Virus record (IMG/VR): IMGVR_UViG_2721755586_000001
Coordinates: 24,063 to 88,062 of that record
Origin: a virus
Length of the DNA stretch: 64,000 bases
Direction: 5' to 3' (one strand)
Below are positions 37,631 through 39,057 of the stretch, piece after piece (positions within the stretch are counted from its first letter, which is position 1; each line of letters starts with the position of its first letter). The position numbers and the translations under genes were made by a program. The notes under the pieces were generated by a model. That model had not been told where the DNA came from and did not search any database. It saw only the letters and a list, made by a program, of their open reading frames with translations.

Positions 37631-37945
37631 GTGGAGGTGCAGTATGACATGACATATTTTGATGAAGTCGTTGCCAGATTAAATATTGATGATGTATCAC
37701 TGTTAACATTGCTGCAAGAATGCGGAGCGAACAGGCTAATAAAAGGAATGACAAAAGAAGACTTCAAGATCGAATCAGTTAAACTAGATACTCAATTTTC
37801 AGAAGCGACTATAAGATCAGCTTTAAGTAAATTGGAGGCACTACTGCTTATTGAAAGAGACTCATCAAGTAAGCACCATAAATTCATAATTACTTCATAT
37901 GGAATTATGGCCTTAGAATATCATTTGGAAGGGGAAATGGTTTAA
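37631..37945 (+). CDS. Winged-helix DNA-binding protein, TubR-like
   Basis: SEATIRSALSKLEALLLIER...FIITSYG winged-helix pattern; stop overlaps the start of the tubulin gene. The likely start is ATG 37649, after GGAGGTG. Confidence 0.65.
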   Translation: MEVQYDMTYFDEVVARLNIDDVSLLTLLQECGANRLIKGMTKEDFKIESVKLDTQFSEATIRSALSKLEALLLIERDSSSKHHKFIITSYGIMALEYHLEGEMV

Positions 37946-39057
37946 TGTACGGATTTGTTGGAATTGGTCAATGTGGTGGGAGCATTGCAGATGAAGCAAT
38001 GAAAAGAGGATATTTCAGTATTGCTGTCAATTACTCTAGCTCAGATTTAAATAGTTTAGAAGTTGTTGAAGACAAACTAAAGCTAGTTGGATCCGAAGGG
38101 GTAGGCAAGGATAGGGAAGCAGCTATCAATTACTTTAAAAATAACTGGGAATCATCTGTTGAATTTATTAAAGAAGCAATGGAAAAACCATCGATTCAAA
38201 TTGTGTTTGTTGTCTTTTCAACTGCAGGAGGCACAGGATCTGGAATCGCACCGACATTAATTGAACTATTAGATGAATATTTGGATAACAAGACCGTAGT
38301 TGCTGTACCTGTGATGCCTGATCACAGTGAAGTGATATTGAATCAATTAAACACCGTTGAATGCCTTCAGGAACTGTCAGAAAAGCAATTGAATATAATT
38401 CCACTAGACAATTTTAAAGTGTCTCAAAAGGGCATTAAATCATTCTCAGAGCCAATCCTATATCAAAAGGTGAATAAACAATTTATTGATATGCTTGAAG
38501 AGGTTGAAGAGTATACAAACCTTCCATCTAACTTCAGTACATTAGACAAGAAGGACTTAAACCAAATTTTCAATACTCCAGGTGTGACAGTGATTTCGAA
38601 AATGGATTTATCTGATTATAACAAAGGAAAATTCGCAAACACTCTACATGACGATATTAAACAGTCATGGCAGCAATCCATTTATAGCGCAGACACTTTT
38701 GATTCGTTAGTTAAAGCTGGTATTATTATAGACGGTAATGCAGATTTAACTGATCAGATTAGCTTTAAGAGACTTTTCAGTGAGGGGGAACCATTAGATT
38801 TATTTAAAGGATATTATGATACTGGTAAGAATCAAGTGATTTCAATTTTAAGTGGACTAGGATGGATTAACGACAGAATGAAGCAATTAGATGACCTGAT
38901 TGAATCAAGAAAAGTTGAACCAGTAAAAGAAGAGGTATATGTTCCAAAATTCAATTCAAAATCAGCATTTTTAAAGCAGCAGACTAACACTAACAAGGGT
39001 GAGAAACAAGTGAACAAAGGAAGTTACTTAGATAAACTTAAATCATTAAAACGATAA
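37945..39057 (+). CDS. tubZ: Tubulin/FtsZ-superfamily GTPase, TubZ/RepX/PhuZ-like
   Basis: T1 loop GIGQCGG, signature STAGGTGSG, GSEGVGKD, T7-like TLDKKDL, and a basic amphipathic C-terminal tail YLDKLKSLKR. Confidence 0.85.
   Translation: MYGFVGIGQCGGSIADEAMKRGYFSIAVNYSSSDLNSLEVVEDKLKLVGSEGVGKDREAAINYFKNNWESSVEFIKEAMEKPSIQIVFVVFSTAGGTGSGIAPTLIELLDEYLDNKTVVAVPVMPDHSEVILNQLNTVECLQELSEKQLNIIPLDNFKVSQKGIKSFSEPILYQKVNKQFIDMLEEVEEYTNLPSNFSTLDKKDLNQIFNTPGVTVISKMDLSDYNKGKFANTLHDDIKQSWQQSIYSADTFDSLVKAGIIIDGNADLTDQISFKRLFSEGEPLDLFKGYYDTGKNQVISILSGLGWINDRMKQLDDLIESRKVEPVKEEVYVPKFNSKSAFLKQQTNTNKGEKQVNKGSYLDKLKSLKR

Follow-up and report, generated by a model that had tools for sequence, protein, structure and literature searches.

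The 64,000-nucleotide (nt) stretch analyzed here, which we call the window, spans positions 24,063 to 88,062 of IMG/VR virus record IMGVR_UViG_2721755586_000001, a 135-kb record classed as a provirus, and carries a coupled tubR-tubZ gene pair that a first-pass annotation had read as a tubulin-based segregation module in an SPbeta-like phage. We propose, with a probability of roughly 55%, that this pair, which is of the type found on plasmid pBM400, forms together with a divergent Xre gene a cassette lying between yonP and the pac (genome-opening) region of a prophage integrated in spoVK, and that its predicted role is to position extrachromosomal phage DNA. Type III partition systems (TubZRC) have been studied so far as partition machines of plasmids or plasmid prophages. 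The pair itself is thus known, and what is new is its setting, in that the prophage integrates, the pair has an Xre partner, neither TubY nor a recognizable tubC accompanies it, and pac lies beside it. This raises the question of what use a tubulin motor might be to an integrating phage that is already segregated with the chromosome.

The tubR-tubZ pair and its closest relatives

Two overlapping open reading frames (ORFs) on the plus strand form the core of the locus, where the first-pass annotation had placed them. The second and larger one (tubZ, 37945-39057) encodes a 370-amino acid (aa) protein that matches the Pfam Tubulin family (PF00091) with an E-value of 1e-19, scoring 72 bits against a cut-off of 33. 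When compared by sequence to the PDB, it matches TubZ of the Clostridium botulinum phage c-st (1e-16) and Bacillus cereus TubZ/RepX (2.5e-10), and it shares 38% identity with pBM400 TubZ (1e-70). The motif AGGTGSG occupies residues 94-100, with G95, G96, G98, and G100 invariant across 14 homologues, and D201-x-x-D204 (in LDKKDL) is invariant across the family. The T7 motif of FtsZ is NxDxxD and, by analogy with it and from their position after helix H7 in a structural model, D201 and D204 are predicted to be the acidic residues of the T7 loop, on which GTP hydrolysis coupled to polymerization depends. This model, generated with AlphaFold2 (AF2) from the 14 homologues, has a pLDDT of 85.6 and a pTM of 0.84. 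Its top Foldseek match is c-st TubZ (3v3t, E 8e-27, TMt 0.85), followed by CetZ and by the TubZ proteins of B. cereus and B. thuringiensis, the latter two at TMq 0.70-0.75. Public databases label these proteins either "tubulin-like domain-containing protein" or "cell division protein FtsZ." Sequence and model together identify the 370-aa protein as a TubZ.

The C terminus of this protein deserves a closer look. Residues 325-359 are predicted to be disordered (pLDDT <50) and are followed by a terminal helix (361-369), with the last ~10 residues carrying a basic motif, S-x-x-D-x-L-K-x-x-K-R, which is conserved in homologues at 35-92% identity and recurs in pBM400 TubZ. A flexible linker followed by a basic tail is the layout of the TubR-docking tail in characterized TubZ proteins, which suggests by analogy that the window TubZ might dock on its TubR in the same way.

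To place TubZ among its relatives, we used a quick maximum likelihood (ML) search, and the resulting tree has several long outgroup branches and a midpoint root only. In this tree, the window TubZ and pBM400 TubZ fall into one clade with 100% support in the Shimodaira-Hasegawa-like approximate likelihood ratio test (SH-aLRT), and the sister group of this pBM400-type clade consists of phage G gp138 and its relatives. c-st TubZ belongs to a separate clade, and pBtoxis TubZ, Escherichia coli FtsZ, a haloarchaeal CetZ-like protein, and phiKZ PhuZ all lie outside, PhuZ being the farthest. The window protein is therefore no member of the PhuZ sequence clade, and its PHROG matches agree, since it hits the PhuZ family phrog_4733 (4.9e-11) more weakly than phrog_17961 (1e-18). 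Phylogeny thus groups this TubZ with a plasmid partition protein and away from both PhuZ and FtsZ. In phage G, a 98-aa protein (gp137, L186:2186-2482) is encoded directly upstream of the TubZ-like gp138, with its stop adjoining the gp138 start, and may be an unannotated TubR.

The first ORF is open from a GTG at 37631 and stops at 37945. An ATG at 37649 is the likelier start, because it lies 8 nt after a ribosome-binding site (GGAGGTG, 37634-37640) and fits the 98-99 aa calls made in relatives, which gives a 98-aa product (tubR, 37649-37945). In a phmmer search of the PDB, the best and sole strong match of this protein is pBM400 TubR (4asn, 1.5e-10), to which it is 36% identical by BLASTP (5e-17), and comparisons with Pfam, PHROG, and NCBIfam returned no family match. 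Its AF2 model (pLDDT 82) is a winged helix-turn-helix (HTH) with both an N- and a C-terminal helix, and Foldseek again retrieves 4asn_A (E 5e-6, TMt 0.83, 34% identity) with no other match at E<1e-3, the B. cereus and B. thuringiensis TubR proteins coming lower in the list. Both sequence and model thus identify the 98-aa protein as a TubR, which would be expected to bind DNA. The TAA stop of tubR overlaps the ATG of tubZ in a TAATG (37943-37947) that is kept in nearly all of ~50 related loci, as the proposed translational coupling would have it. Taken together, the matches of the two proteins (Pfam Tubulin 1e-19, c-st TubZ 1e-16, TubR 1.5e-10) are far beyond chance, and sequence, fold, phylogeny, gene order, and coupling agree that the pair is genuine.

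The closest characterized relative is the system of pBM400, a Priestia (Bacillus) megaterium plasmid, which resembles the window pair in protein sizes (~100 and ~372 aa), in its overlapping genes, and in the C-terminal tail (of the ...D-K/I-L-K-x-x-K/N-R type). It differs in that pBM400 is an autonomous 54-kb plasmid rather than an integrated phage of ~125-130 kb, in having ~640 bp of non-coding sequence before tubR as opposed to 121 bp in the window, and in that a divergent Xre gene belongs to the window cassette.

The c-st system (3v3t/4xcq) is also phage-borne and provides the best PDB match to TubZ by both sequence and structure. In addition, c-st encodes a YonO homologue ~10 kb from tubRZ, so the two phages are, as far as these genes tell, distant relatives. 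However, the two TubZ proteins share only 25% identity and belong to different clades, c-st TubR is monomeric and lacks the terminal helices that are both present in the window model, and c-st has a tubY gene downstream of tubRZ. Moreover, c-st does not integrate but persists as a plasmid prophage, and it has a split tubC of ~350 bp in front of tubR (PMC6009700). No homologue of c-st TubY was found in the 135-kb record; TubY is a modulator present in c-st and pBtoxis and is not universal in type III systems. Other c-st-type phage-plasmids (NC_015417.1, CP063960, and CP063823) likewise encode a YonO homologue (~47% identity) ~10 kb from tubR-tubZ-tubY. In c-st itself the YonO homologue is split by insertions (L185, c-st 162905-185683), and an FtsK-like gene occurs both in c-st-type phage-plasmids and in the TubRZ loci of Cytobacillus and Priestia. 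These observations suggest a deep relationship between c-st-like and SPbeta-like phages, and TubRZ may be ancestral to the phage supergroup that shares YonO.

The systems of B. thuringiensis pBtoxis (TubZRC) and of pXO1-type plasmids (RepX/TubZ) have the same gene order, protein superfamily, and fold. They are plasmid-borne and highly divergent, pBtoxis TubZ being missed by tblastn and sitting on a long separate branch. pBtoxis TubZ has 484 aa, and pBtoxis tubC consists of seven 12-bp repeats. The pBtoxis system is the mechanistic paradigm, in which the TubR-tubC complex rides on treadmilling TubZ filaments, and its tubC measures ~130 bp (PMC6009700).

An accessory cassette of integrated SPbeta-like prophages

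The genes around tubR-tubZ confirm that the phage is SPbeta-like. The window encodes a YonO RNA polymerase (phrog_8308, 1029 bits) with ~70% nucleotide identity to SPbeta yonO, and it also contains a HU/YonN-like gene, a yonP-like ORF, a YonV-like gene, and yonT-like and SR6-like elements. Up to 37527 the genes run on the minus strand and from there rightward on the plus strand, and the GC/AT skew reverses where the strand switches, which places the pair, as suggested, at the point where transcription diverges. On the right, the tubRZ operon is closed by an intrinsic terminator on the plus strand (39062-39091; 13-pair stem, 4-nt loop, T-run), and the ~950 bp after tubZ contain no ORF.

We then examined the ends of the provirus record, which bear on the state of the element. 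The left end (record positions 1-8000) holds host genes for NrdI, NrdE, NrdF, a CwlC-like amidase, and a spoVK-like AAA protein cut within its ATPase domain, i.e., the B. subtilis-type nrdIEF-ymaB-cwlC-spoVK neighborhood. The right end (127458-135457) encodes a 600-aa large serine recombinase that is SprA-like. For the SPbeta-like phage Goe14, spoVK has already been reported as an attachment locus (bioRxiv 10.1101/2021.11.22.469490). Because of this host flank with its truncated spoVK and the serine recombinase, the element is, on the evidence of its sequence, integrated into host spoVK, and in this record the tubRZ pair thus sits in a provirus rather than on an autonomously replicating low-copy replicon.

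How widespread is the pair? TubZ homologues with 92-96% identity occur in genomes of the B. altitudinis/pumilus group, and more distant ones in B. licheniformis (59%), in B. amyloliquefaciens/velezensis (53%, a cluster of 151 members), and in Cytobacillus, Niallia, Priestia, Brevibacillus, and others (35-45%), mostly on chromosomal contigs of up to 3.9 Mb. Four loci that we retrieved, from B. amyloliquefaciens, B. licheniformis, B. altitudinis, and Cytobacillus kochii, share one neighborhood with the order YonK, HU, YonO, small ORF, Xre-HTH (minus strand), TubR, and TubZ (plus strand). In a chromosomal locus of P. megaterium, tubR-tubZ lies in another context and without the Xre gene. IMG/VR holds ~45 proviruses of 85-140 kb with a TubZ of at least 52% identity.

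A survey of the junction upstream of yonO (yonP|yonT) in 36 close IMG/VR relatives, defined by a YonO of at least 68% identity, revealed three states: 1) Xre-HTH, TubR, and TubZ in 20 of the 36, 2) YonR and YonS in 4, and 3) the non-coding region alone in 12. SPbeta itself has yonR-yonS at this position. None of 24 SPbeta-like isolates in a phage collection, all from B. subtilis hosts, encodes a TubZ, in line with the first-pass annotation, according to which SPbeta itself has no tubulin at this site. YonR shows a weak resemblance to the Xre HTH protein. The idea that it is a diverged TubR was ruled out, as there is no similarity (E = 7).

The Xre gene (37288-37527, minus strand) lies divergent from tubR and encodes a 79-aa Xre/Cro-type HTH protein (Pfam HTH_26, 4.4e-7; phrog_3 repressor, 3.6e-9). 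Its homologues (41-94% identity) are present in exactly those IMG/VR loci that have TubR and TubZ and absent from every TubZ-less locus, and the mobile unit therefore consists of three genes. The description of tubR-tubZ as a self-contained terminated operon accordingly stands as regards the terminator and fails as regards self-containment, since the divergent Xre gene always accompanies the pair and no tubC was identified.

Could the cassette be a functionless, decaying relic of a plasmid or phage-plasmid ancestor? It is missing in many close relatives, and in two IMG/VR proviruses tubZ is frameshifted or truncated, to 301 codons before the stop in one (L043:6001-6906) and to 134 codons in the other (L060:6001-6405), which looks like cassette decay in progress. 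However, pairwise comparisons among members of the pumilus group and among those of the velezensis group gave ratios of nonsynonymous to synonymous substitutions (dN/dS) of 0.04-0.15 (tubZ) and 0.04-0.17 (tubR). In each of these two independent host groups, tubR and tubZ are thus both under strong purifying selection. Furthermore, intact frames, catalytic motifs, and the TAATG coupling are kept across lineages that share 35-60% identity. Selection analysis thus largely refutes a relic, which we regard as very improbable indeed. These findings indicate, at the level of sequence, that Xre-tubR-tubZ is a widespread accessory cassette of three genes that is selectively maintained. The element with the shorter tubZ encodes a YonV 91% identical to SPbeta YonV.

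The main rival to a role in positioning is a facultative plasmid-prophage lifestyle, in which the genes would act as a type III partition system maintaining a long-term low-copy plasmid prophage (a c-st-like facultative phage-plasmid), for example when the attachment site is occupied or absent. The homology to the pBM400 and c-st partition proteins speaks for it, as do the YonO that c-st-type plasmid prophages share with the SPbeta-like group and the nearby type I toxin-antitoxin pair (yonT/SR6-like). So do two circular records separate from the chromosome that carry the cassette, "plasmids" of B. pumilus FUA2116 (124,561 bp) and B. velezensis HMB26553 (plaBV1, 122,487 bp). However, a circular SPbeta-like "plasmid" of B. 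subtilis SH1 exists without TubRZ, and the share of cassette carriers among these records (2/3) agrees with that among proviruses (20/36). The "plasmid" records were therefore rejected as proof of an episomal lifestyle, being non-diagnostic, and they may be excised, replicating phage DNA. In PLSDB, the three entries (NZ_CP154907.1, NZ_CP097468.1, and NZ_CP064819.1) are complete circular SPbeta-like genomes of 118-125 kb filed under B. pumilus, B. velezensis, and B. subtilis, respectively, as plasmids, and at least plaBV1 was published as a plasmid by authors who did not recognize its phage nature.

Further evidence against this rival is that dozens of relatives, like the window record, are proviruses that are integrated and encode a serine recombinase, that homologues occur on chromosomal contigs as long as 3.9 Mb, that yonT/SR6 and YonV are core SPbeta genes with no link to the cassette, and that we identified neither a plasmid-type initiator nor a tubC. 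We consider a facultative plasmid lifestyle unlikely, if far from negligible. The plasmid-like extrachromosomal prophage state that the first-pass annotation had seen as one implication of the pair is not implied, given that the provirus is contiguous with host genes. Its suggestion to check whether the element is integrated or circular leads to a clear answer for the window phage, which is integrated, and to an ambiguous one for its relatives with circular records.

The divergent region, the repeat cluster, and the question of tubC

In characterized type III systems, tubC is an iteron array of 130-350 bp upstream of tubR (PMC6009700). In the window, the only non-coding DNA specific to the cassette is the 121-bp divergent promoter/operator region between the Xre gene and tubR (37528-37648), which is hence the sole place for a cassette-borne tubC. 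It contains an imperfect palindrome (37589-37622) with an inner GTAAC-N4-GTTAC (37610-37623), two copies of a GTTGTCT direct repeat (37548 and 37597), and the ribosome-binding site of tubR. We found in it no iteron array of at least three copies, the kind of tubC known from pBtoxis, pBsph, and c-st. The palindromes upstream of tubR differ by lineage, the B. velezensis group having ATTTGCAT-TTAA-ATGCAAAT and an extra copy of ATTTGCAT. They look like operators for a dimeric regulator, be it Xre or TubR, and unlike a classical tubC. The assignment to type III thus fits the genes, their order, and their coupling; the iteron array and TubY are the parts that were not found. Two shared words were considered and dismissed, namely 1) a 13-mer, CAATTAAATNCAC, common to the region upstream of tubR and to position 39514, which is not significant and is absent from SPbeta, and 2) a 10-mer, AACTTTTGTT, common to the regions upstream of tubR in the window and in pBM400, which is probably a chance match in AT-rich DNA and is not kept in other lineages.

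A cluster of ATCGTAA(A) repeats just beyond the tubZ terminator had been singled out as a tubC candidate. Its copies start at 39099, 39121, and 39203, with an inverted one at 39305 (cluster 39099-39311), and the ATCGTAAA cluster is statistically real, since 4 of the 8 matches in the window fall within ~210 bp. It is part of a conserved non-coding element (39095-39700) that adjoins the cassette and lies outside it. SPbeta, which is without TubRZ, has an equal cluster with equal spacing (22, 82, and 102 bp) between yonP and yonR, inside a non-coding element of 350-600 bp that is conserved among the window phage, SPbeta, and B. amyloliquefaciens. The B. licheniformis prophage has an ORF of 337 aa, without a Pfam match, inserted between tubZ and the repeats (L004:9227-10240), and distant YonO phages without TubZ carry comparable clusters. 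The genome-opening/pac site of SPbeta-like phages has been mapped to the yonP-yonR interval (bioRxiv 10.1101/2021.11.22.469490).

Since it occurs without TubRZ, in SPbeta as in TubZ-less relatives, since it is separable from tubZ in B. licheniformis, and since it lies in the mapped pac interval, the ATCGTAAA cluster is probably not a tubC, and the earlier suggestion did not hold up. Most likely it belongs to the region in which SPbeta-like phages have pac and open their genomes, which corrects a tempting mis-assignment of the repeats beside tubZ as a centromere. Within the element at 39095-39700, several blocks of 20-40 nt are near-identical in the window phage, SPbeta, and B. amyloliquefaciens prophages, and the distant YonO phages have lineage-specific repeat variants of the GGGTAA and GTAACGA types.

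We also asked how the cassette might be controlled. In SPbeta, the master repressor MrpR acts at a site named SPBRE, and its target promoters have been reported (PMC10516654). We derived an SPBRE-like motif from the regions upstream of SPbeta yonP, yonT, and yonX. The corresponding 16-nt TATATGTAATTTGTAT has 10 copies in the window at no more than two mismatches (32895, 36110, 37218, 41797, 46104, 46136, 47476, 48900, 56301, and 60910), when 0.13 would be expected. The copies are mostly intergenic and in the early arm, one of them (37218) adjoins the yonP-like gene, and they are probably the master-repressor operators of the window phage. The motif scan found no SPBRE-like site upstream of tubR, so control of tubRZ by the lytic master repressor is not a given. 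The Xre protein encoded in the cassette is the candidate that first suggests itself as its regulator.

A predicted machine for positioning phage DNA

The integrated prophage segregates with the chromosome, and the substrate of TubRZ is therefore most likely an extrachromosomal form of the genome. We propose the following mechanism. TubR dimers would bind phage DNA, the 121-bp divergent region being the sole candidate site carried by the cassette, and the basic C-terminal tail of TubZ would dock on the TubR-DNA complex. TubZ would polymerize into filaments whose GTP-driven treadmilling moves or positions the phage genome. The DNA moved would be the extrachromosomal genome of ~125-130 kb, present between infection and integration or, once excised, while it replicates and undergoes headful packaging. 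Such a role would be analogous to that of the actin-like AlpAC system of prophage CGP3 and, in function, to that of PhuZ.

AlpAC/alpS of CGP3, an integrated prophage of Corynebacterium glutamicum, is the closest functional analogue, because it too pairs a filament of the plasmid-partition type with a DNA adaptor. AlpAC is reported to aid both the replication and the transport of viral DNA after induction (PMC4446434, PMC5539076). AlpC is however actin-like (ParM type) and has no sequence relationship to the window TubZ. PhuZ (phiKZ gp39 and its counterpart in 201phi2-1) is a phage tubulin that positions phage DNA in lytic growth, which is the likeness that counts here alongside the weak PHROG match. 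It differs in having the most distant branch of the tree and no TubR partner, and in serving the phage nucleus of lytic jumbo phages that infect Gram-negative hosts. As to the PhuZ-like positioning that was initially suggested, the protein stands far from PhuZ in the tree, although a lytic-phase role like that of PhuZ or AlpC stays the best functional guess.

Several observations weigh against a role in positioning phage DNA. The cassette is dispensable for this type of phage, being missing in 16 of the 36 close relatives and in all studied B. subtilis isolates, and two proviruses have a damaged tubZ. An iteron array in the 121-bp region and an SPBRE-like site before tubR, neither of which was found, belong to the same side of the balance.

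Another explanation is that the cassette has no part in segregation and acts instead on a target in the host or in other phages, for example in division, cell shape, or superinfection exclusion, or that TubR and Xre are mainly regulators of transcription. This would suit a moron-like accessory cassette at a variable hot spot, occupied otherwise by yonR-yonS or by nothing. Because the genes come with an Xre regulator of their own, transcribed divergently, and show no SPBRE-like site, lysogens could express them. An SPbeta-like phage is reported to alter the shape of its host cells by lysogenic conversion, a case not linked to the cassette (PMC12361552). Against it, the strict coupling of TubR and TubZ and the tail of the TubR-docking type point to a DNA-tethered motor. 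TubZ has no match among the PADLOC defense families, and its likeness to FtsZ is remote (NCBIfam TIGR00065, 32 bits against a cut-off of 295). Copolymerization with FtsZ is not known from TubZ proteins. The interference with host FtsZ once considered for this protein thus finds no support, and we hold a non-segregational role to be distinctly improbable.

If TubRZ does position phage DNA, the implications may be broader. It is conceivable, and we put it forward tentatively, that many large integrating temperate siphoviruses of Bacillaceae (SPbeta-like and encoding YonO) carry a dedicated tubulin-based DNA-positioning machine. On the transient extrachromosomal genome, it would act as a mini-spindle that organizes replication and packaging near pac or as a switch to plasmid-like lysogeny when integration fails. 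Cytoskeletal positioning of genomes would then not be confined to jumbo phages and phage-plasmids but would reach ordinary prophages that integrate in Gram-positive bacteria, here in a genetically tractable model family. The literature we searched contains no paper on TubZ or tubulin in SPbeta-like phages, and the main comparative study of SPbeta relatives mentions neither FtsZ nor tubulin (bioRxiv 10.1101/2021.11.22.469490), so the novelty of the pair in these phages stands as far as this literature goes. The SPbeta-like group already serves as an established model in genetics (arbitrium, MrpR, YonO, and SprA), and with natural variants in three states at one locus, with and without the cassette, isogenic comparisons should be straightforward.

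Finally, a few small features lie to the right of the repeat cluster. A 57-aa ORF on the plus strand (40004-40177) encodes a yonT-like type I toxin with a hydrophobic N terminus and a Lys/Arg-rich tail. It is overlapped by an SR6-like antisense RNA on the minus strand (40115-40215; RF02892, 42 bits, below the gathering threshold), the sole RNA match in our Rfam scan. A second small membrane ORF (40254-40439) follows the yonT-like toxin.

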